Positions 4,960 through 64,000 of a stretch of DNA of 64,000 nucleotides are shown here, piece after piece. The first letter of the stretch is position 1; each line of letters starts with the position of its first letter. The notes beneath the pieces are model-generated. The model had not been told where the DNA came from. It saw only the letters and a program-made list of their open reading frames with translations, and made no database searches. The position numbers and the translations under genes were made by a program. The stretch spans positions 16,554,001 through 16,618,000 of the forward strand of contig OZ360234.1 of NCBI GenBank assembly GCA_977017645.1. The letters run 5' to 3'. This DNA comes from Torpedo marmorata. Taxonomy: Eukaryota.

Positions 4960-33898
<28,939 letters not shown>

Positions 33899-38908: not shown

Positions 38909-40215
38909 TCAGAATCCGAATTTATTGTCATAAGTCATGAAATTTGGTGCTTTGTGGCAGCATCATAGTGCAAACATTCATATTATAACCATCTTATGAC
39001 ATTACTATAAAAATATATAAATAATAGTGCACGAAAAGTAAGGCAGTGTCTTTCGTTCATTGATTATTCAGGAATCTGATGGCAGCGGGGAAGAAGCTGT
39101 CCTTGTGCCGTTGAGTGCTCGTCTTTAGGCTCCTGTACCTTTTTCCCGATGGTAGCAGAGAAGGCCTGGGTGGTGGGGGTCTTTGAGGACAGAGGCTACT
39201 TTTTTAAGACACCACCTCGTGAAGATGTCCTCGATGGAGTGAAGTCTGGTGCCTGTGATGTCACAGGCCGAGTTAACAACCCTCTGGAGTTTATTCTTGT
39301 CCTGAGAGTTGGCGTCTCCATATCAGGTAGTGATGCAACCAGCCAGAATGATCTCCACGGTACACCTGTAGAAGTTTACGAGAGTCTTCGGTGACATACC
39401 GAATCTCCTCAGACACCTCACAAAGTATAGCCGCTGGCAAGCCTTCTTTGTGATTGCATCAACGTAGAGGCTCCAGGACAGATCCTCGGAGATGTTGACA
39501 CCCAGGAATTTGAAGTTCTTGACCCTCTCCACTGCTGAGCCCTCGATGAGGACTGGGTCGTGTTCCCCTGACTTCAAGATTCAATTTCAATTTATTGTCA
39601 TAGTAATAAGACAGTGTCATATTCCATGAAATTTCTTTTTGCCTGCTGCAAGGCAGACAGATTCGCCACCGGCAGAAATTGCCTAAGCGCCTCTAACATT
39701 TCTTACAGTCAGAGAAAGGGAAGCAAAAGAGAGTCCCCCCAGTCACCGAGTGTCCATAGATTCGCCTCCAGTGCTTCCGCAGCCTCCGCAGCCACACAGA
39801 GTCCAGTCCAAACGATCGGCATCCCGAGCTCCAGATCTGAACCTCCAACTCGGTCAGGTCGCCCTCGCATCCCGTTTCCGATACCTGGTACTCCTCTAGC
39901 CAGTTCGAGCCAGCCTCCAGCAGTCCGCAGCCCGGCGTGAGTCCCCCGACAGCAGTCTCCAGCAGCCCACAGCCTCCGCGGGTTCCTCACCTCAAGCCGT
40001 ATGTATGAATTGCTGTTTTCGAGGTGATCCAGAGCTGAGTGGAGAGCCAGCGATATTGCATCTGCTGTGGAGCGATTGTGACGATAGGTGAATTGCAATG
40101 GGTCCAGTTCTTTGCTTAGGTACGTGTTAATTCTGGCCATGACCAACCTCTCAAAGCATTTCATCACAGTGGAAGTTAGTGCTACTGGGCGGTAGTCGTT
40201 GAGGCAGTTCACACT
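38909..40215 (-). mobile_element. Second Rex1-like fragment, interrupted by a non-coding retroposon (39576-39994)
   Basis: Highly similar to 6881-7563 and 7988-8190. Confidence 0.85.
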
Positions 40216-40540
40216 ACTCCTGCGTGGTAAAGTATTTCTGCACTTTGCACCAACATCTCCCTTGCATTTATCTCAACTTGCCGTGAATGTGTTCTAGGTT
40301 ATTATCAGGCGTCGTTGTCCTCCCCTTGGAACTGATTGCGAACTGCACACTCCAGTGGATTCTTTATCTTTGTTTGTAAAGCTGAAACCATATCTCAGCA
40401 GTTCGGGATTGAATTATCCTTCACGTAGAAGCCAAAAAGGTTCACACATTTTCAAATTCAAATTGCTTAAAATTATTTTAATGTTTACCAGGGTTACAGC
40501 GTTAATAACAAGGACGGGAAGCATTGACAAAAAACATCAC

Positions 40541-40800
40541 TGATAGGCCTTATCAATGATTACTCAAAGACTGTGAGAGCGAGTGAATCATAGGCTTTTA
40601 TTATCAAAGAATGGAGCTGTGCTTCTCACTCGATCAGATCCGGACTGAAGGGGGTGGGCCAAATACAGTGGCCTTTAACCAGGTGAGGAAGGGGAGGGAT
40701 TACCTGGACACCCAAGGGAGGGGAGGGAGTAGGTATCAGTCCGGCCTGCAATACCAGAGCACACCACAACACACCAATACAAATACAGTGGTTTACCACA
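40541..40800 (-). repeat. 3' LTR of Gypsy copy 1
   Basis: Direct repeat of 44850-45109. Confidence 0.95.
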
Positions 40801-40885
40801 TTCACCCCTCCTTTTTAAAAGAGTCCAGCGGGGTGACGTGACCACTTTACATACGGAAAAAACATATATACATATAGACCCCGCC

Positions 40886-42377
40886 TCACAGGTCGAGGCG
40901 ATCCGGCGGCCGAATGTTCCGCTGGGACCTGCGTAGTGGCGGGTCGGGTTGTGGTGCTGGGGGAATTGGTGATGGGGGAGGTGGTAGGTTCGTCTGTGCC
41001 TCCTGCCTGGCCTCTTGGCGTGCTTGCGTTGAGGGGGCGGGGTCTAGCACATCGGATGGGATGTTAGGAAGGGGTTGCGTCGGGTGGTTTAGCAGTCTGT
41101 GGTCTTGCCCGTCGGAATGCCGTTCTGGCGCCCCATCGGGCGCAAGGTCTCGTATGGAGACGGTGTCTTCTCGTCCATCCGGGAAGACCACATATGCATA
41201 CTGGGGGTTGGCGTGCGCCAACTGCACCCTCTGAACCGTTGGTTCATATTTGCTGCCCCGAAGGTGGTTCCGGAGCAGCACTGGTCCCGGGGACATCAGC
41301 CAGGCAGGTAGGGAGGTTCCGGTGGACGACTTCCTGGGGAAGGAAAGAAATCGTTCATGAGGGGTTGTGTTGGTGGAAGTGCACAAAAGGGACCGGATGG
41401 AGTGGAGGGCTTCGGGGAGAACGTCTTGCCAGCGAGAGACCGGCCAGCCCTTTGACGTAAGGGCTAGGAGCGCGGCCTTCCATACTGTGGCGTTCTCCCT
41501 TTCCACCTGTCCATTTCCTCGGGGGTTATATGCCGTAGTTCTGCTGGTGGCGATGCCTCGGTCCTGCAGGTACCGGCGCAGCTCCTCACTCATAAAAGCT
41601 GCTCCCCGGTCGCTATGTATGTAGTTTGGAAAACCAAACAGCGTGAATACCTGGTGGAGAGCCCTTATGGTTGAGGTAGCTGACGTGTCGGGGCAGGGGA
41701 TGGCAAAGGGGAACCGCGAGTACTCGTCGACAACGTTTAGGAAGTACACGTTGCGGTTCGTGGAGGGAAGGGGCCCCTTGAAGTCAATACTGAGACGTTC
41801 GAAGGGGCGCGTGGCTTTGATCAGCTGTGCCCTGTCCGGGCGGTAGAACTGAGGTTTGCACTCTGCGCAAACACGACAGTCTCTGGTCAAAGCCCTGACC
41901 TCTTCCAGGGAGTATGGCAGGTTCTGTGCCTTCACAAAGTGAAAGAGCCTGGTAACTCCTGGGTGACAGAGGAGGTCATGTAGGGCGTGTAATCGGTCGA
42001 CCTGCGCGCTGGCGCATGATCCCCGGGATAGAGCGTCTGAGGGCTCATTGAGCTTCCCGGGCCGATAGCGGATGTCGTAGTTATAGGTGGAGAGTTCTAT
42101 TCTCCACCTCATAATTTTATCATTTTTGATCTTACCCCGCTGCTGGTTGTTGAACATAAATGCTACCGAGCGTTGGTCGGTCAGCAGGGTAAAACGCTTG
42201 CCTGCGAGATAGTGCCTCCAGTGCCTGATTGCTTCCACAATGGCCTGGGCTTCTTTCTCCACAGCGGAGTGTCGAATTTCGGGGCCTTGGAGGGTGCGCG
42301 AGAAAAACGCCACCGGCCTTCCCGCCTGGTTGAGGGTAGCAGCCAGTGCGAAGTCCGACGCGTCACTCTCCACCTGG
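40886..42377 (-). CDS. Gypsy RNase H-integrase (continuation of pol after a 1-nt frameshift)
   Basis: SDAS and EKEA (RNase H), HHCC zinc finger, DDE triad (SIDFKG, HSDRG, QVEREN). Confidence 0.9.
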
Positions 42378-44823
42378 AAAGTGTCTCTTCATCCACCGCG
42401 TGCATTGTTGCTCGCGCAATGTCCCCCTTTATAAGGTCAAAGGCCTTACGTGCCTCCGAGTCAAGGGGGAATACGGTGGATTTCACCAGGGGTCGGGCCT
42501 TATCTGCATAATTCGGTACCCACTGTGCATAGTAGGAAAAGAAACCGAGGCATCGCTTGAGTGCTTTGGGAGTGGGGGGTAGTGGAAGTTCCAGTAGGGG
42601 GCGCATGCGATCGGGGTCTGGCCCAATCACCCCGTTCTCTACCACGTACCCCAAAATAGCGAGGCGCGTGGTACCGAACACACATTTATCTTTATTATAT
42701 GTTAGGTTAAGTGCTTTAGCCGCCTGCAGGAACTTCCGGAGATTGGCGTCGTGATCCTGGCGATCCAGCCCACAGATGGTGATATCGTCCAGGTACGGGA
42801 AGGTGGCTTGAAGTTTATATACCTCCACCATGTTATTCATTTCCCGCTGGAACACAGAAACACCATTAGTAACCCCGAACGGAACCCGCAGGAAGTGGAA
42901 CAGTTTCCCGTCAGCCTCAAACGCAGTGTACTGGCGGTCCTCCCGACGGATAGGGAGCTGATGGTACGCGGACTTTAGGTCGATTGTGGAAAAGACCTTA
43001 TATTGGGCGATCTGATTAACCATATCCGCAATCCTCGGTAGCGGATATGCGTCCAACAGGGTGAACCGGTTAATCGTTTGACTGTAGTCCACCACCATCC
43101 TACTCTTGGCCCCTTTTACTACGACCACCTGGGCCCTCCAGGGACTATTGCTCTTTTCAATAATCCCCTCTTGCAGCAACCTCTGTACCTCCGTCTTGAT
43201 AAACGCCCTGTCCTCGGGGCTGTAACGCCTGCTCTTGGTCGCAACAGGCTTACAGTCCGGGGTCAGGTTGGCGAATAACGACGGAGGCGAGATCTTAAAA
43301 GTGGAGAGACCACAGGTAGTCTGGGGCTCCTTATTAAGGAACTGGTGGTTGACTACAGTGATCGCCGGGTGCGGACCATCGTACCGCATAGTGACACTGC
43401 GCAAGTGGCTCTGAAAATCAAGCCCCAACAATACAGGTGCACATAAACGATCCATAATAAAGAGGGAAAAATGTTTGTACTTTGTCCCCTGAACCACAAT
43501 ATCAGCAACACAAGCCCCCCGGATGTCTGTTGTGTGTGACCCAGACGCCATGGCCACTCTCTGGCTTACCGGTATGGTAGTGAGGCCACAGCGCTGGACA
43601 GTGTCCGGGTGGATGAAGCTCTCCGTACTGCCCGTATCGAAGAGGCATGTGGTCTTGTGGCCCTCCACCAGAATGTCCATCATCGATCTTGTTAGCTGGT
43701 GCGGGACACTCTGGTCGAGGGTGACTGAGGCAAGCGTCGCTAAATAGTATTCTTCGTCTTCCTCCACCACCGACAAAGATGGCCGCTCCCGTTGCTCGCA
43801 CGTGTCGCTGCTGGAAGATGGCGGCGGCATTATGGCCGGAAGTACCGACGCGGGCGGCGCCGGAAGTGCCAGCATTAAAGATGGCCGCCCCCGCGGCTCG
43901 CATGAGGTCGACCCCGGAAGTTCCCGGCTGAAAGATGGCTGCCCCCGCAGCTCGCACGCGGCCGACTCCGGAAACAACCTCAGGTAAGCGGATGGCTGCC
44001 CCCTCAGCTCGCACGCGGCGCTGCTCAGGCCCGGGCGCGACTTGGAGCGGCAGGCCTTCACGTAGTGGCCTTTTCTGCCGCATCCGGAACAAGTCGCGTC
44101 GCGGGCCGGGCAGCGCTTCCGCGGGTGCTTCTCCAGCCCGCAGAAGTAGCACTTCTCGGGCTCGCGGCTGGCTGCAGCGGCGGTGAGGATCGCGGTAGCA
44201 GTCGGGTCGGCGCGGATGGCGACAGCGGCGGTCATTTCGTTAGCAGGGCTGGGGGATGGGGCTGACCACGTTGTGGCCTGAGAGTCGCGGGGTTGCATGG
44301 CGTCGGAGTTCTTTTGTGCGTTCTCCAGCGTGCAGACCATCGCAACGGCCCCTTTAAAGTCCAGGTCGGCGTGCTCTAGCAGTCTCTGGCGCACATATAC
44401 CGACCTGAGTCCCATGATGAAGGCATCTCGCTCCACCACTCGCAGGTGTTCCTCCGCAGTCTGGGCTTTACAGTCGCACGCCCGTGCTAGTGACTGTATC
44501 ACCCTGACATATTCAACGGTCGATTCCCCTGCTCGCTGCGCTCGGGTGTAGAGTCTGTATCGTGCATAGACCGCGTTGACCGGCGACAGGTAGATTCCTC
44601 TCAGGGCCTCCATAGCCCTCGTGTACTCCGTACAGTCTCTTATGGTAACGTACACACGGGAGCTTACCCTGGAGATGAGGACCTTCAGTCGCTGCTCTTC
44701 GGTTACTGCTTCGATGGTTTCCATAAACGATTCAAGACATCGCAACCAGTGTTCAAAGACGTTACCGGCATCAGGAGCTAGGTGATCGAGGTCGAGGATA
44801 GCTGGCCGTAGTGCTCCTTCCAT
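42378..44823 (-). CDS. Gypsy Gag-protease-reverse transcriptase (starts MEGALRP; frame breaks near 42380)
   Basis: CCHC knuckles CYFCGLEKHPRKRC and CSGCGRKGHYVKAC, protease LFDTGS, RT motifs PFGV and YLDD. Confidence 0.9.
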
Positions 44824-44849
44824 CGGGAAAAAAACTTTGATAATAAAAT

Positions 44850-45109
44850 TGATAGGCCTTATCAATGATTACTCAAAGACTGTGAGAGCGAGTGAATCAT
44901 AGGCTTTTATTATCAAAGAATGGAGCTGTGCTTCTCACTCGATCAGATCCGGACTGAAGGGGGTGGGCCAAATACAGTGGCCTTTAACCAGGTGAGGAAG
45001 GGGAGGGATTACCTGGACACCCAAGGAAGGGGAGGGAGTAGGTATCAGTCCGGCCTGCAATACCAGAGCACACCACAACACACCAATACAAATACAGTGG
45101 TTTACCACA
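44850..45109 (-). repeat. 5' LTR of Gypsy copy 1
   Basis: Reads TGTGGTAAACC...CCTATCA on the minus strand and contains AATAAA. Confidence 0.95.
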
Positions 45110-45358
45110 ATCACATGCAGCCATAAATCAGCTGTAACTCGTGATCATGTTGACATCACCCACGCAGCATAAAACATGACATCAGCCAGTTTGCACACTG
45201 GTCATTTCTTCCAGTTTGCTGAAGGTTAAAAACTTATTATGAATCCCATTAAACACTTTTATTTAATCGTTCAGAAATGTATTTTAATGGTTATATTGGA
45301 GCATTGCTTATTCTAGCATTTCTGATTCCAGTTTGTTGCAAACACCTTACTGGAGGAG

Positions 45359-45700
45359 CACGTGATTGTGATTGCACGTGATTGCACGTGATTGTGATTG
45401 CACGTGATTGTGATTGCACGTGATTGTGATTGCACGTGATTGCTTCCATCGGGACACCTCAAGATGATTGGAAAATAGAAAAAGGTTCTTGTGTTTAATT
45501 GGTTCGCTAACCATGAATTGATTGGCTAAGAGTATACGCTAACAGTGCGTGAGACATCGGCAGTGTCTTATTGGTCAGAAAAGACGTCGCTCACAGAGGA
45601 GGTGGTACCTGATTGGCCACCCTGGCCCAGTCAGAGCCGCGCTGGAAGCTGATTTGCCCGAGGGTTGTCGGTGCGCTCACTGATCACGTGCGAGGCTTCG
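45359..45700 (+). promoter_or_regulatory. LAMP2 promoter: tandem E-box (CLEAR-like) array and reverse CCAAT boxes
   Basis: CACGTG at 45359, 45375, 45385, 45401, 45417, 45433 and 45685; ATTGG at 45467, 45498, 45521, 45570 and 45612; CpG-rich sequence just upstream of the ATG at 45758. Confidence 0.7.
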
Positions 45701-45806: not shown

Positions 45807-48800
45807 GTGAGGGAATGGTTGTTCGTCCGCTCGGCGTCCGTCGCTGTGTCCGGTGGCCCTGTGGAGGCGACAGCCCGGCAGAGCCCTCGCTCGGTTCCCG
45901 ACGTGTGGGCCCAGCAGTCACCCTCCAGTGTGGGCCCAGCAGTCACCCTCCAGTGTGGGCCCAGCAGTCACCCTCCAGTGTGGGCCCAGCAGTCACCCTC
46001 CAGTGTGGGCCCAGCAGTCACCCTCCAGTGTGCTTTCATTTACTCTCTGCTTGTAGTGGCTCCACGTCAGCCTGTGGCCGTCTTAAATTCTGATGTACAT
46101 TGCTTGAATAGGTGTTCGGCATGCACTAGAAGGGCCGAACGGGCGTGTTTCTGTACTGTAATTGTTATATGGTTATAAGAAGGGATCAGGCCTGAAACGT
46201 CGGTAATATATCAAGATTCAGGATTCGATTTATTGTCATGTAATAAAAACAGTACAATATTACGCAGAATTTGTTTTTGTCTGCCATAAGACAGACAGAA
46301 ATTGCCAGAAGTGCCTCTTACAGTCAGAAAGGGAAGCAAAAGAGAGTCCCCCCAGAGTCACTGAGTGTCCACGGATTCACCTCCAGGGCTCCCGCAGCCA
46401 CAAGACCATCGGCAACCCGAGTTCCAGATCCGAATCTCCAACGTGATCAGGAACCCTTCGGCACCCTCTCGTATCCCACTTCCAATATCTGGTACCCCTT
46501 TCAGCCGGTCTTGAGCTATTCTCCAACAGTCCGCAGCCTGGTGTGAATTCCTCGACCGCAGTCGCCCGCAGCCTGCGTGGGTTCCTCGGCTCGAGTCGCC
46601 AACAGCCCGCCCGCCTGTTTGTTCTTCAGCCTCAGAGCCTCTCACTGGTCCGCCGCCGTGGTCACTGTCCCGTGGGTCGTCTCCTCTGCTTCTCCTTCTC
46701 AAATGGGGGAGGTGGTCTCCCCGTTTTCTGGTGCCCTGCGCCAGTCCTCTGCTTCCCCGGAGTCTGCAACCCCTCGTGGCCGCTGCTGATCCTGAGCACA
46801 GACCCCTGCAGTTGCAATATTTTTAAATAAAACCACTGTCGGCTCCATTTACAGGCTGTTTAAAGCCTGTAAGGAGCTGACGGCAGTCGGACTGGGCGGT
46901 TGGGCCCCGCGGGAGCGCTGTGACAGCTTCCCGTGCTCCGCGGGTCCGCACTAGTGGCAGCGCTGCCGTTACAGCAGCTCCAGCAGCGCTGCCTTTTTCA
47001 GAACGCCATCATTGCCTCGTATGGGTGGTGTGAGACCGGCTGAGTTCCTCCAGCATTTCTGTGTGTTTTAGTCCTGATGTACAGTACAGATCTTGAGACC
47101 AGTAGTGGCTGGGCATTGATCCCGTTAATGGTTGGTATTACCAATACTTGCAGTTGTATATCTCAGTTTCAATGCTTCAGTGAATTGAGTGGTTATACTT
47201 TATTTTCCCAGTCTTTATGTAATTTCATGACTAATTCGTTGTACCTTGGAGAAAATATTGATACATACTGAGATAAGTAGCGAGCTCCAAATCTGGGCAA
47301 AATTGGGAAAACTGGACACATACAGAATTGTGAGTAAAACATGAAAGTCTGCAGACACCATGATTGAAGTAAAAACACAATGCTTTATCTTTGCTACATA
47401 AAGTACACTGTTTGACCTGCTGAGTTTCTTCAGCATTGTGTTTTTACATACAGAATTGTTTCTGCTTCGGAATTATGCACCCCTTTGTACGGCCTTTTCT
47501 TCTGCATTTGTTTTGTATGTGTGCAGTGACTTTTTAATCTCTCTATTGAAGGATAAATGAATTAAACTCTCAATTTCACCTCAGGCTGTCCTGATCTTTA
47601 AAATCCAACATGAACTGAAACACCACTATTTGACATGCATTTTCTAGTTTTGTTGGAAAAAGAGTGACTTAATAGTACAAGTTTGTCTGACCTCATTAGC
47701 AGTTTTCTGCAACATAGGGCAGAGTTATTGGCTGTTTGAAGTTTAAATTTTGCCAGTTGAGTTTTGTCATTAATTTTATCCATACCTTTCAAATGGTAAC
47801 TCAGTTGTGGGATTTGTACTATCTGCATCTAAACAGAAGGAAATGGTGGTAACGTTTTATGAAGGCAAGTATTTGATCAATGGTAGATTTTGGGAGACCT
47901 TGATTTCAATAGATTGATTTCTGATTAGCAAGGCCACTTTTATTTTTACAAAGCAGACATTAAGGCTGTGGTGGGTTTCTTTAGCTGGTAATGTGCAGGC
48001 AGTAATATTGTGCGGGCAGTAATGTGCAGGCAGTAATACTTGTTAGTGTTTGCTTCCTGCCAGAATTTTTGGTGATATCCGCTTTAATGGTTAAGATTTC
48101 TGTGACTCTGTGGGGGGAAAAAAAAATGTGCTTCACTTTTGAAAAGTAGTTTGTTCAATTCTGTTTTGATTCAGTCTTTTTTGGTTTAATGTGAGTATTA
48201 AATATGTTAATATTCATGGGTGCCTACTGCAGATGCAGTTTAATTTGTTTATTATTTAAATTTCTTTTCTGGCATAGCTACTTCATTTTTTCCACTTTTG
48301 TCTAGAATATTGCAGTGTGTATATTGGACTACAGTGTTTCATTGTTTTGGATTCAGCATTTCCTGGGTCATGTCACTTTTGGGCCTTTTGTGATTTTTTT
48401 TTTTTCCCCAGATTGCTTTGGTTTTAATCAGCTTTTAGTTTGCCATTGCACCATTGTCCAATCTTTAGTGTAGTGAGGTGCTTGGATATTGGAATAGTGA
48501 TACTTGAGCATTATCCTGGTATCTTTATTCTTTCACTTGACGTATAAAGTGTACTGTATTCTCGTATTGCTGCAAGTATCCCACCAATGGGATTCTTAAA
48601 CAAGATAAATGGAGTTAATTATTTAATATGGATACCTGTTGCATTTCAGGAATACATACTTGGTAAGATTTTTACTAATTTGGTCTGTAATTCTTACCAG
48701 GCTATCCTTTTTGTTCAGTTATGGGCATCTAAATCTCATCTCACAAATAGAATAAATAGTGTGTTAGTGCTTGATTTTTATTTTGCACTAATTATACTTG

Positions 48801-51800
48801 TTGGAACCACCAACATTCAATGGTCAACCTAGAGTCCCAGATTGGAGAGCAGAATGAACAGTGAAGAAGGTTGTGAGTTTGCAACATGATCTGGATGACT
48901 GAGGAAAGTGGGCCAAGGAATGGCAGATGGAATTTAACTTCAAGTGCAAGGTGTTGCATTTTGGTCCATGAAACCAGGGCAGGACATCTTCAGTGAATCT
49001 GTAGACTTCTCTTGGTGCTGGAGAGAGCGTTGTGGAACAGAGGTTTGGGGGTACAGGTAATGGTTCCACGAAGGTGGGGTACAGGTAATGGTTCCTCGAA
49101 GGTGAGTGAACAGGTAATGGTTCCACGAAGGTGGGGGTAATGGTTCCATGAAGGTGGGGGTACAGGTAATGGTTCCACGAAGGTGGGGGTAATGGTTCCA
49201 CGAAGTTGAGGGTACAGGTAATGGTTCCACGAAGGTGAGGGTATCAGGGCATTGAATACAGAAGCAGGGAATTTCATGAACAAAACATTAGTGAGATGTC
49301 ATTTGGAGTATTGTGGGCAATTCTGGTCACTCAGCTCCAGGAATGTTATCATTCACCTGAAAAATTCAGGAAAGATTCAGAGAATGTTCCTGGGATGGGA
49401 GGGCTTGAATACAAGGAGGCTGAAGGGGGACCTTTTTTATGGAGGTTTAAAACCAGAAGCAGCATAAATAAGGTAAATAGTCTTTCCCTTTCCCAGTGTA
49501 TGGGAGTCTAAGGGCGGCACAGTTGGCGTAGCGGTTCGCGCAACGCCTTTACAGCACCAGCGATCAGGACCGGGGTTCGAATTCCGCGCTGTCTGTCTGT
49601 TCTCCCCATGTCTGTGTGGGTTTCCTCTGGGTGCTCCAGTTTCCTCCCACCATTCGAAACATACCGGGGGTGTAGGTTAATTGGGTGTAAATTGGGCGGC
49701 ACGGACTCGTGGGCCGAAATGGCCTGTTACCGTGCTGTATGTCTAAATTTAAACCTCGAGGATGTTAAAGGTGAGGGAGGGAGGGGGGGGGAGGTGGTGG
49801 GAGATTTAAAGGGGAGCTTTCCACTCAGATGGTGGTGGGCACATGGATTGAAGTGGTAGAGGTGGGTACAGTTGTTAACATCTGCACCAGTTGATCTGTC
49901 AAAATGGAGGTCACAGTTTTGAATGTGAACTGCTTGATGTGGAATATGATGGCAAAATAGATTTGAATGTCACTTATCTTGATTAGTGTCTATACTGTAT
50001 ATCTGAGAACTTGCATTTTTTTTAAAGTCTGCAAATTATTTTGAGTTCATTTGAAGTGAAAGATGTGAAGTGACATTTGAGTTCTTGCTGCAGGCCAGGC
50101 AGTGTAGTGTGGACGAGAAGAACAACAGTACACGATAAAATACAAGATCATCCTCTCACTCTGCTTTGAAATATGAAGTCCCTGATGTATTTGCACAAGT
50201 TTGATTTTGTGTCAATGCCAATATGCCATGATTGTTACATTGGTTAAAAACGGATGTCTGCAAATAGCCCTTGAGTTTGTAACTTTGGAATGGAATCAAA
50301 AGGTGAATGAGGAATCATTAATTCTTTCACTTAGCAATCATTCTTAAAAATGTATTTAACTTGAATGGGTTAATCTTTAGATTTGCCATTGTCAATCCTC
50401 GAGTAAATTCATAAATTGAGCAATGGCGTGACACCTATTTTGCATGTAATTGCTTGACTAAACTTAAGTATCCAAACTTGACCATTGGTGATGTTTTTTG
50501 GATAGTTTTTTTTTCCCAAATGCAATCCTGCAAATGTTCTTGGCATCAAAAATACACAGGTACCTTGATGTGTTGATGGATTGTTCCATGGTAACCATGA
50601 ACATGAGTATTTTTTTATTTTCAGGTTTATCACTGGCTGAAGCAGTGGAGATTGAAGTCTATGACGAGAATAACAAAACTTGCATATATGCTACTTTGTC
50701 TGTCAACTTCACTGTCCTTTATGAAGGAAATGCAACAATGGTAGGTCATGTACTTTTCTTTTTGATTGCCACAGTAAGATTGGAGCATGAAGTTCAGTGT
50801 GTAATTTCAGCTGCTGTAGTTAATTTTTAATGCTTGCTTTGAGGATGAGCATTGGGAAGGGAGGTTTGGCTGGGAATTGGCTCCTATTTACAAGTCAGCA
50901 ATTTGCATGTTTAGCAGCAATAACATTCAGCTTTATTGTAATGGTATCGAGGTAAAATTCACTTGAGAATGTTGAATATGAAAATGTTTAATGAGGGAAA
51001 GTAATGCTTATTAACGTAGGGTGGGGTCAGCAATCACTGTTTGGTTAAGCTTGAATTCCTCCTCCTTCAAAATTAAATTTGCTTTATCATTTCAATTCTG
51101 CAAATTTAATCAGAGTTACTTTGAGTATTCCAGACCAAATGTGTTGTGTGTGTATTCCCAATTACATGTTGAAAGAAAGTGTAGTTTATTTGACCACAAC
51201 TGTATCTTGATAGTTAGATAATTGGTTGACATTCAACTTCAGGTATTTGTCTTCACATACTATTCTTAAAATGAAAGATTTGCTTGGTATCTTTGCCTTA
51301 TTCAGAACCACTGAGCACTTCATAATGGGTAGCAGTGAAAATTTAAAATTATAATTATCCATCTAGTCATTGCCAATCCCTCCACTTGTTGCAAGTTTAA
51401 ATGTATTAAATTCCAAACTTTTCTATGAATTTGCAGCTAATCTTTTTTAATCCTTGTGAAGGGGTTGAGTTTGTGCCTGCGTCTCCTTGAAGAGAATGCA
51501 GAATATTGGTTAATTGCGTGTCCCGCAGCACCATTGTGGTTATAACTAATTGTGCCATCAAAATGCCAGCCTAATTCTGATTTATCTGTTTATTCAGGAA
51601 AATGCAACCTTTCAACTGCCTAGTTCGTTGTCCTCAAATGGAAGTGTGTGCGGTAATAATAATTTGGCTCCCTTGTTAAAAATGGGCTTCGGACCTGGTC
51701 ATTCCATGAGCTTGAATTTTTCCCGTTCTGCTGGAATGTTTAGAGGAGATGTGTTATCTTTCACGTACAACACTAGCGATACAAAGCTGTTTCCTGGAGC

Positions 51801-54800: not shown

Positions 54801-57800
54801 GAATCCATATTTAAATTTGATCATGATGTTAATGATTAGTTTATTGTATAATGTATCTGACAATGTACACATGCACTGAAATTACTTGCTATAGCGAAAC
54901 AGGCACTGTAAGGATATCTATAATAGTATACCTGATTGAATTAAAAAGAGCCAATGAATACAAGATAAATATTCGGTTCTCCTAATGAAAAAAAAAAATC
55001 TAGCTTTGGGAAGAAGATAGTTTCATTATATTAACAGTTAATTACCGTATTTGACGGCATATAAGACCCCCCTTTTTTCCCAAAAAATCACCTCAAAAAC
55101 CACCCTGGGTCTTATATGCGAAGGTGACATTTTGGTGCCGCCATTTTGGGCACCGAGTGGAGGCATCCATCTGATGGCGACAGGAAGAAAGCGCTAAAAC
55201 TACTCGCCCAGCTTCAAGAAGCCCGCAGAGGTGCTGTGGCTGTCCAGGAAGCGGGCCTACAGCTTCACGTACCACCTTCCCTCTGGTGGCCCGTGCTCCC
55301 CGGTAAGAAGGCTCGCTCTCTCCCTCCTTCCCGCCCGCGCGCTCTCTCCCACAGTGCTCTGAGGGGAGCGCTGGGCCTCGATGATCAGGCTTTGTTCGAC
55401 GTGCACGGCTCCCCGAACAGATTGACTGAGGCGCGGGGGCGGGTGGCAGTGAGCAAGCGGCCTGTCAAGCTCAGCTCAACAGGCTGCTCACTCACTGCCA
55501 CCCGCCCCCGTGCCTCATTCAATCTGTTCGGGGAGCCGTGCACGTCGAACAAAGGTTCAGTGTGGAGCCTGATCACCGGCGCTCCCCTCAAAGCAAGCGA
55601 TTGATCGTCTGTTCCCCGCGACGGCGGGCCTGGGCCTTGCCCGTTGTCCTGGCTCCCACCCTCGCGTGCCCACGGGTCCCGGCACACCTGTCAATCAATT
55701 AGCGCTTGGACGGTGGGGGGGGGGGGGGAGAAGCAGCCTGAGCCTCGGTGAGCGGCGGGCAGGAGGACGTGTTGCTGCTGTGAAGGTAAATACACGAAAA
55801 CAATTTTTTCCTGAAATCTCACTAAAAATGAGGGGGGTCCGATATGCCGTCAAATACGGTAACTATGGAGGCAGCTTGTTTTTTTAATTCATGGGTAGTA
55901 CTTTGCTGAACTAAATTAGGATAAACTAGATTGAAACAATCTTCTAGATCTATATGGTGGCTTGTTAATAATCCTATGATTATGATCTCCTGAGACTTGT
56001 CAGCATTTTTGCATACTTGTGTAATATTTTGTTGCAGGATCAAACAAAGTTCTTCTTGAAGGAGGTGGAAGCTAATGTAAGCCTGGTTGTGAATGGTTTA
56101 AGTAAGTATCGTCTATTGCAGTCATTGAAGGCAAGCTTGGCAAGTTGACCATCCAGAAAGATTTAGTCTCAATGGGAAGGGTGACTGAGATTGGCTTTAT
56201 CAGGCAAAATGTTATTGACCTAAAACATTCTTGTTTTTCATAACTGCTACCTGGTCTCAGGCATGCTCACTATTGTATTATGTTGGGTAAACTAGTTGTC
56301 TGGAAGTTGGGCAAAGGTTGTCTTTGTAGGTATTGCCTAAAACTGCTGGAAACAAATGTCACTGCTCAAATGCCCCATGGATGTGTTCAAATTTGGTTTT
56401 AAATAAAATTTCAATCCGAATTAGTTTTTGTTAATTTTCTGATTTGAATTAAGTGGGTTCACTTTTTCCTTTCCAGCAATCTCAGTTCACAGCAGCAACA
56501 GTAGCCTGAGGTATTGGCAGGCATCTGTTGGAAGTTCCTACATGTGCCACAAGGAACAGACGCTGAGGGTGACTGACCAATTGGTTATTCATGCATTTAA
56601 TGTGTGGGTCCAACCATTTGAGCTGAAGTCTGGAACCTTTGCCAGAGGTAAGTGGTTTTTTGTGAATGCTAACTGCAAATGCTACCTTTTTGCAATCTGT
56701 CACGATAACTAGATAGCAGTATCTTCTTGCTTCTGTTCAGTGTGAATGGTAAAACTAATTGCCTATATGGTCAAAATAGAACAAATGTAAAGTTTCAGTC
56801 TCTGCTCTTTGCCTTCCATTCCCATCTAGAAACATTTGTTTTCTTTTAATTTTAAATATTTTATTTTTCATTTTCAGAAATTTTCACAAAACATTAATAA
56901 ACAATCACAAAATATACACAAATTTCAAACGTATCAAGTACAGAATACATTACACCCCTTAACCCTCCCTTCCCCACCCAAAAAGAATAAAACCGAGACA
57001 AAAGAGAAAGAAAAAGAAAACTAAACATACCATCAGTGCTTACAACTTTTTTCCCAAGTATTTGGGGATGCCACACCCTTAAAATAATTATACATTACAG
57101 TATACCATACCTCAGGGGTTTGATTACAACTGAGCACCAATGTGCTCCAAGTATGGTTGCCACACTTTAACAAAGTTATCGTACTTATTTCTAAGACTAT
57201 ATGTAATTTTTTCCATGGGGATACAGCTGTACATTTCCATAGACCATCAAGTGATGAGAAGGGGGGAGTCGGACTTCCAAGTAACTGCAATGCATTTTTT
57301 TGCTACGGACAGAGCAACTTTTACAAATTGAATTTGGAATTTAGATAATCTGGTGCTTATATCCATGAGGTTTCCTAAAAGATACAACTCCGGGTCTAGT
57401 GGGAAGGCTACTCCTGTGATCCTAGTTAGTGATCTAGCAACATTTGTATTGAATTTTCTCGCATGCCATGCTTGCCAATTGTACTGAAGTGCTGATCCCT
57501 GTTACCGTAAACTTTTGAGTGACATGTCCAGCTAATGCAAGATTTAATGTTGAACTTGGCCTGAGAAAGTTTACAGCTGATATTGACATTCTTGGATTAA
57601 GGGCAAATTCTTCGAAGAAAATGCCATATTTTCCTATTTCCTTGTTGACATAATGTCAGCCATTGAGATTATGGTAGCTTGGAGCATTCCTGTCAGACCA
57701 TTCCCTCACATATTTCCATGGTTATTCTCGTGCCAACTAACTCCCATAATTGTCCTGCCTTGCACCCAGGGAAATTTATAGGAGCCAGTTAACCTACTTT

Positions 57801-63432: not shown

Positions 63433-64000
63433 TGTGGTAAACCACTGTGTTTGTATTTGTGGTGTATATAGGTATTACAGGCCGGACTGATTTCTACTCC
63501 CTCCCCTCCCTTGGGTGTCCAGGTAATCCCTCCCCTTTCCTCACCTGAATAAAGGCCACTGTATCTCGGCCACCCCTCCAGTCCGGATCTGATCGAGTAG
63601 GAAGCACGGCTTCATTCTTAGTTAATAAAAGCCTATGATTCACTCGCTCTCACAGTCTTCGAGTGGTTATTGATAGGCCTATCAATTTTATTAACTAAGT
63701 ACTTCTGATGGAAGGAGCACTACGGCCGGCTATCCTCGACCTCGATCACCTAGCCCCCGATGCTAGTAACGTCTTCGAACACTGGCTGCGATGTCTAGAA
63801 TCGTTCATGAGCACCATCGAAGCCGTAAGTGAAGAGCAACGATTGAAAGTCCTCATCTCCAGGGTGAGCTCTCGAGTGTACATAACGATAAGAGACTGCG
63901 AAACCTACTCGGGGGCTATGGATGCCCTGAAAGGAATCTACTTGTCGCCAGTCAACGCGGTCTACGCGCGATACCGACTCTACTCCCGAATTCAGCGAGC
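63433..64000 (+). mobile_element. Second, diverged copy of the same Gypsy family: 5' LTR (63433-63684) and gag start (ATG 63708), cut by the window end
   Basis: LTR TGTGGTAAACC...CCTATCA is homologous to copy 1; gag reads MEGALRPAILDLDHLAPDASNVFEHWLRC. Confidence 0.92.

Follow-up and report, generated by a model that had tools for sequence, protein, structure and literature searches.

The 64,000-nt stretch of Torpedo marmorata DNA analysed here (the window) holds two copies of a Gypsy retrotransposon in which the place of the tRNA primer-binding site is taken by a complement of the element's own LTR, and this raises the question of how such an element starts reverse transcription. Self-priming, where the retrotransposon's own RNA serves as the primer, is usually tied to the Tf1/sushi group, and to our knowledge it has been demonstrated only for Tf1 of fission yeast.

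Copy 1 is encoded on the minus strand, as are all its features below. It occupies positions 40541-45109 (4,569 bp, with TG...CA ends) and is flanked by the 5-bp target duplication GTGAT. Its LTRs, the 5′ one at 44850-45109 and the 3′ one at 40541-40800, are 260 nt long each and show a single difference between them. A polypurine tract (40801-40815) precedes the 3′ LTR, and the gag (CCHC)-protease-RT reading frame (42181-44823) opens with an ATG 11 nt past the primer-binding slot. A break interrupts the pol frame after RT and before RNase H, the latter being found together with integrase in a second frame (40886-42388). Copy 2, on the plus strand, starts with a 5′ LTR at 63433-63684 and runs beyond the window edge, the complete element measuring 4,568 bp with a 5-bp duplication, AGTAC. 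The TG...CA LTRs, the target duplication, the polypurine tract and the order protease-RT-RNase H-integrase are those of Ty3/gypsy elements, the closest named proteins come from rays, and the CCHC gag and integrase tail are, we presume, Mag-like. Neither the window integrase nor those of four full-length relatives gave a Pfam match to a chromodomain or to the Tf2-1 SH3 domain. In the host genome (6.2 Gb searched), the site of each window copy was identical in all 30 of the 30 loci fetched with that copy; each is the representative of a young subfamily, not a lone variant.

The 5′ LTR of copy 1 ends in ...GGCCTATCA at 44850, followed by one spacer A (44849) and then by the slot TTTTATTATCAAAG (44848-44835; spacer and slot together, 44835-44849), which is the exact 14-nt reverse complement of the segment CTTTGATAATAAAA within the same LTR (44918-44905). 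This segment, identified by covariation as the pairing partner of the slot, contains AATAAA, and its end reads AAA|GCC. The corresponding segment of copy 2 is CTTAGTTAATAAAA (63617-63630), and its spacer A (63685) and slot TTTTATTAACTAAG (63686-63699) cover 63685-63699. Two bases of the segment differ between the copies, the 9th and the 11th from its 3′ end, and both changes are mirrored in the slot. An initial annotation of this DNA had described the 14-nt complement, the two compensated changes and the lack of a tRNA site starting with TGG, and all of this, including every coordinate, was found to be exact: the slot starts TTTT in both copies and TGG follows neither LTR, so that the element is not classed as tRNA-primed. 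With 14 nt of complement beginning at CA+1, it falls instead under the rule for self-priming elements (a complement of at least 10 nt to the own LTR, directly after the 5′ LTR and without a tRNA site). The longest complement to the slot expected by chance was 9 nt, as judged from 20,000 shuffles of the 260-nt LTR with its letter pairs permuted. A genome search for the LTR followed by TGG gave 2,201 matches with mixed spacers, which are no test for a tRNA-primed subfamily; several of the matches listed sit about one element length from a 5′ junction, and are therefore likely 3′ or solo LTRs beside host DNA.

Directly 3′ of the paired segment, the GCCT at 44901-44904 can form an inner helix with the AGGC of U5 (44856-44859), of which they are the 5′ and 3′ strands, and the former marks the predicted cut region. 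For the Tf1 group, the title of a paper by Lin and Levin from 1998 is said to name a U5 helix beside the primer duplex. The LTR end is also a near-perfect palindrome, TGATAGGCCTATCA (44850-44864 and 63671-63684), which is an alternative to the inner GCCU/AGGC helix and whose four outermost pairs persist in 63-66 of 68 loci. The CTCCAT that borders the paired segment on its 5′ side (44918-44925) is pairable with the gag start ATGGA (44823-44818, minus strand) in the predicted fold of copy 1, and a similar pairing occurs in some subfamilies, not in all.

The relationship between slot and LTR extends over many genomic copies. A junction pattern, AATAAAA-N45-70-TATCAATTTTATT, found 23,474 matches in the genome against 5 for the reversed control; the pattern itself fixes pair positions 1-7, and only later positions vary freely. 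We examined 72 loci, made up of the two window copies, the first 30 matches listed and 40 picked by hand, with an eye to varied U5 sequences, from 70 others listed, all listed matches belonging to one contig. At positions 8-12 of these loci, with the mis-anchored locus L125 counted, 350 of the 360 pairs are Watson-Crick, 2 are G·U and 8 are mismatched, so LTR segment and slot covary in a larger set of copies than the pair from which the initial annotation had started. All four bases are seen at position 9, where 71 of 72 loci pair (the best of 1,000 shuffles gave 31). Pairing falls from position 13 on (58, 45 and 22 of 72), the complement ending sharply at 12-15 nt, and 21 distinct perfect 12-mers occur among 68 genomic loci. 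When the changes are placed on a gag tree (68 loci, after omission of L119, L125 and two loci whose start was not located), positions 8-12 account for 38 steps in the LTR and 37 in the slot, and for 40 joint steps against about 75 if both changed independently, counts that recombination between LTR and gag could inflate; the coupling fades at positions 14-16.

The kind of mismatch found in the slot is informative about how the pairing is kept. It is established for LTR elements that the slot is re-copied from the primer in every cycle (PMC7175516; this and the other sources cited by accession were available in part). As segment and slot are reverse complements of each other, decay after insertion should produce as many U·G as C·A mismatches; a purely structural stem, by contrast, should favour U·G. 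Genome-wide, position 9 shows 27 U·G and 24 C·A mismatches in the one context covered. In the inner helix, formed by the GCCU next to the segment and an AGGY in U5, a G·U is present at the first pair in 24 of 68 loci, a tolerance of wobble that the slot does not share, as would be expected if the slot is copied anew from the primer in each cycle. That G·U and C·A mismatches are about equally rare speaks for copying over selection alone, and the slot tracks the LTR segment as re-copying predicts.

The same arrangement is found in distant relatives. From 532 confirmed loci of a metagenome scan 80 were kept, 53 of them with a located gag start and enough upstream DNA. A perfect complement of 11-19 nt lies one base after CA in 37 of these 53, in 22 distinct sequences, the longest complement in 207 windows within gag being 7 nt. 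The remaining 16 did not reach the strict limit of 11 nt; single-base defects are visible in many of them, and some are deleted or mislocated. RCC comes right after the segment in 20 of the 22 distinct sequences. The poly(A) signal is less constant: AATAAA lies within the segment in 6 of 22 and either AATAAA or ATTAAA in 12, while in 2 one of these motifs is found in the loop only and in 8 in neither segment nor loop. AATAAA is not a conserved feature across the clade and masking of the poly(A) signal is not clade-wide, such masking being possible in the families of this host. In two relatives (L357, L373) the paired segment ends GAAGA or ACAAAT, and the 3′-most positions thus covary outside this host too.

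An RT tree of 68 rows places the window element and 22 metagenome loci in one clade of 53 rows (SH-aLRT 99, stem 1.29), apart from the rows with a Tf2-1 SH3 domain, in what is a quick tree with a midpoint root and without named references. Named proteins of this RT clade or its clusters belong to rays, Actinostola, Porites, Acropora, Montipora, Paramuricea and Trichinella, the matches in a protein atlas are retrotransposon gag clusters only, and the RT motifs matched nothing in the searched supplement files of PMC6238403 and PMC8556966. The feature is real and clade-wide, and most likely represents self-priming outside the Tf1/sushi group.

If the element primes itself, the ends of the primer become the next question. 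A TATA-like box, the predicted promoter, is present at 44981-44988 of copy 1 (GTTAAAGG; AATAAAGG in most subfamilies) and at 63548-63555 of copy 2. From this box to a YAGT motif there are 31-34 nt in 68 of 70 loci (32 in 51 of them), a spacing with the geometry of a core promoter, whereas YAGT and the 3′ end of the segment are separated by a variable 51 to 75 nt. This geometry sets the predicted transcription starts at 44955, the A of TCAGT in copy 1, and at 63580 on the plus strand in copy 2, well upstream of the paired segment. Judging from the spacing and from the read-through stops described below, position 44955 would also be the 5′ end of the primer RNA, with a predicted length of 51 nt in copy 1 (44905-44955) and of 51-75 nt across subfamilies. 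Of 68 leaders folded in silico, 66 form the primer helix with p>0.8. The 5′ extension of the primer folds no better than its shuffles (52 sequences), and the folding energy of the whole leader is unexceptional (z -1.6 and -1.9). A tRNA mimic or a strong stop hairpin in the 5′ part of the primer, considered as a candidate, was unsupported (mean z 0.0).

Aberrant genomic copies, in which the complement after the LTR is extended, offer a second view of both primer ends. In locus L119 the complement extends 52 nt to the predicted start and then joins gag. Three targeted patterns, which cover only the subfamilies that fit them, recovered 81, 45 and 63 extended copies (189 in total), and controls gave 0. 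Most of them, 143 of 189, reach the LTR start, past the predicted transcription start, on account of which we dropped the reading that all extended copies map the primer; the other 46 stop sooner. Among 40 unique early stops, 18 lie before the predicted start, 11 at -1 to +2 of it and 11 after it, which corresponds to 3.4, 17.8 and 0.6 stops per 1,000 nt at risk. Both the excess at the predicted start relative to the preceding rate (p 1e-5) and the drop after it (p 4e-6) refer to a -1 to +2 window set once the first cases, L119 included, had been seen. The RNA template begins at these start-site stops, from which its covalent identity with the primer does not follow. Acceptors of early stops are scattered over gag, RT and U3, and for 3 of the 11 start-site stops no acceptor was found; two others (L161, L235) land on CCGGAC-like motifs in gag/RT, which could attract junctions.

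Of the 84 clean unique junctions on the U5 side, 18 are located at 0 to +7 of AAAA|GCC, where 2.8 would be expected, and only 2 at the start site. These 18 are spread over 8 nt and count two palindrome artefacts among them (L177, L186), and a DNA hairpin has its loop/stem edge at the same place. Taken jointly, an RNA template starting at the predicted site and strong-stop-like DNA ends near AAAA|GCC are what a cut in cis would give. A long class of extended copies continues further, 29 of them into the polypurine tract and 23 of these more than 30 nt beyond the LTR start, and it can originate through DNA snap-back or template switching between inverted repeats.

Other rearrangements were seen along with these copies. 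LTR copies of several subfamilies carry an insert of about 6 or 26 nt directly after AATAAAA, derived from the U5 end and inverted, after which GCC resumes (L141, L143, L144, L153, L158, L168, L169, L173, L177, L180, L182, L186, L223, L227, L232, L242, L244 and L258), and the point of insertion is the predicted junction of primer and DNA. Some aberrant structures exist as identical multiples, either tandem or dispersed (L193-L195, L314, L317-L319 and L213/L301/L305/L311), which indicates duplication or re-mobilisation of rearranged derivatives. Within U3 there is also a short stretch that repeats the predicted start region in inverted orientation, both in copy 1 (CCGGACTGA / TCAGTCCGG; 45064-45052 and 44957-44949, minus strand) and in other subfamilies (L061-L130; CTGTCCCGG / CCGGGACAG). 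It could pair the two ends of the RNA or be a repeated factor site, and eight early stops at -11 to -6 of the predicted start may be linked to it.

Altogether, we are highly confident that the element self-primes in some form, a proposal of the initial annotation that gains from the covariation (21 12-mers in this host and 22 segments in relatives), the scarcity of wobble pairs and the junction clusters. That the primer is a long 5′ fragment of 51-75 nt, cut from the element's own RNA, we consider probable with a good deal less assurance. Under such a model, transcription would start about 32 nt after the TATA-like box, and leader bases of around 38-51 would pair with the slot, stacked on the inner GCCU/AGGC helix. 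The RNA would be then cut at AAAA|GCC or a few bases from it, probably by the RNase H of the element as in Tf1; cleavage 3′ of AATAAAA had been anticipated by the initial annotation, and a cut at or near that point agrees with the U5-side junction cluster. A cut anywhere within the duplex gives the same final DNA, so it may be heterogeneous. The capped 5′ fragment of 51-75 nt would stay bound through its last 12-15 nt and prime minus-strand DNA, whose transfer to the 3′ end would rely on the sequence that lies between GCC and the poly(A) site. Plus-strand synthesis would finally restore the slot from the 12-15 bases at the 3′ end of the primer, which would explain why the slot tracks the LTR without wobble intermediates. 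Occasionally, RT would read the whole primer to its 5′ end and then jump, leaving the aberrant copies. Against a long primer of this kind, the read-through to the LTR start in most extended copies demands an extra strand transfer or a DNA snap-back.

The most serious competitor is the 3′ end of the genomic RNA acting as primer, its copy of the segment pairing with the slot and being cut or trimmed after AAUAAAA, in a genome that circularises and keeps its 5′ end whole. The copies that run from the slot through U3 into the polypurine tract (the 29 above, 23 of them by more than 30 nt) are the direct outcome of read-through on such a primer, which accounts for the covariation too. However, it predicts a strong-stop DNA end at the start site, where 2 U5-side junctions lie against 18 at AAAA|GCC, it does not directly account for read-through that stops at the start site, and in the predicted folds the slot is taken up by the cis hairpin. 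We regard it as unlikely.

A plain Tf1-type scheme, in which the competent RNA starts at the paired segment itself and the primer has only 12-15 nt, would agree with the sharp end of the complement at that length. A pyrimidine-rich TT, Inr-like in the window copies (YCATT), is found just before the segment, and alternative start sites have been reported for Tf2 (PMC5341516, in part). Yet the TATA-like box holds its 31-34 nt to YAGT while YAGT and the segment end lie at a variable distance, the A of the CATT motif varies across subfamilies, and the read-through stops cluster at YAGT, all of which leaves this scheme improbable. The analogy with the first 11 nt of Tf1, suggested in the initial annotation, probably fails for this element, with a predicted start 51-75 nt upstream of the primer 3′ end and stops located there.

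Priming in trans, by short transcripts from 5′ or solo LTRs that end at the internal poly(A) signal and are trimmed by an exonuclease down to the duplex, would show the same 5′ end and the same covariation, in a genome where LTR copies are very abundant and AATAAA lies within the segment. But the many coexisting subfamilies should then leave slots matching foreign LTRs, and slots match their own; 8 of the 22 relatives have neither AATAAA nor ATTAAA in segment or loop, and the conserved RCC helix suggests a cut site in cis, so we see little chance for this explanation. Least probable of all is a hairpin that is only regulatory (through masking of the gag AUG or of the 5′ poly(A) signal) or maintained by DNA-level correction between inverted repeats, with a tRNA fragment or another host RNA as primer: AATAAA is inside the duplex in all host copies examined, themselves selected by that motif, and template switching between inverted repeats is able to make many aberrant copies, but there is no TGG, no single host RNA can match 21 plus 22 different perfect segments, position 9 shows no G·U excess although the adjoining helix tolerates it, the slot begins at CA+1 throughout and AATAAA is missing from the segments of 16 of 22 relatives.

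A long 5′ primer cut in cis, the reading that we prefer, can be compared with what has been described in other elements. Tf1/sushi, Tcn1 and plant TAR copia elements have been described as self-priming, their primer lying at the RNA 5′ end (available parts of PMC3601003, PMC6317226, PMC3286476, PMC6934838, PMC5445492, PMC6238403, PMC4600332, PMC7175516, PMC5006619, PMC5341516, PMC5443660 and PMC2864245). Tf1 RNA pairs through its first 11 bases and is cleaved by RNase H between bases 11 and 12 (PMC7175516, PMC4600332). The present element resembles Tf1 and Tf2 of Schizosaccharomyces pombe, Tj1 of S. japonicus and the Tf1/sushi group as a whole in having no tRNA site, in a slot complementary to LTR-derived RNA and in requiring a cut that frees the primer. 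Unlike in Tf1, the paired segment is found around 38-60 nt downstream of the predicted start, and the 5′ part of the predicted 51-75-nt primer is unpaired. It also departs from Tf1/sushi in having no chromodomain or Tf2-1 SH3 match, in its CCHC gag, in its separate, long-stemmed RT clade and in a duplex that ends at or near the poly(A) signal. In plants, self-primers have been predicted for Tcn1 (Ty3/gypsy) and TAR/Houba/Osr-1 (Ty1/copia) from an LTR complement of at least 10 nt located 0-5 nt after the LTR (PMC6317226), a rule that the present element follows although lineages and hosts differ; in the portion of that source available, primer ends of these plant elements were not mapped from aberrant copies. 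Mosquito Mag elements have similarly short LTRs, 5-bp duplications and a length of around 4.5-5 kb, but they carry tRNA-Ser/Leu/Arg sites (PMC3286476, in part). The words PBS and primer do not occur in the main text, as available, of the MolGy survey of mollusc Gypsy elements (PMC6238403). Across the literature searched, outside which lie Repbase Reports, the primary Levin and Butler papers and most subscription journals, and whose sources were accessible in part, we found no description of how this clade primes. Some Repbase entries reportedly call animal Gypsy families self-primed. What is likely to be new is the long 5′ primer, itself a likely one, together with its mapping from aberrant copies.

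The full picture would be that of a widespread non-chromoviral Gypsy clade of marine animals that came to self-priming independently, with a capped primer of 50-75 nt that is released at a conserved helix junction, AAA|RCC, next to the poly(A) signal, both primer ends being fossilised in thousands of genomic copies and the intermediate mappable from DNA alone; for this whole combination we would put the chances at about even. If true, this would be a second large self-priming lineage, here one of animals, with around 23,000 junction matches in one vertebrate genome and named protein relatives in rays, corals, an anemone and Trichinella, and tRNA-free priming would be a common strategy that arose or persisted more than once. 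A long primer poses the question of what halts plus-strand copying at 12-15 nt without a tRNA modification. Self-primed elements would also be beyond the reach of silencing by tRNA fragments aimed at primer sites. The approach through aberrant copies places both the start site and the cut at positions that are exact and testable.

The rest of the window contains further repeats. A 985-aa endonuclease-RT reading frame of a CR1/L2-type LINE lies at 23185-26142 on the minus strand, and LINE fragments are found at 7041-7820, 32256-32879 and 39709-40272, all of them named by eye from their motifs. Three minisatellite arrays neighbour copy 1, with units of 10/16 nt (45342-45457), 25 nt (45878-46057) and 23/29 nt (49027-49243), and an 82-nt near-perfect inverted repeat with a 1-nt spacer occupies positions 55390-55554.
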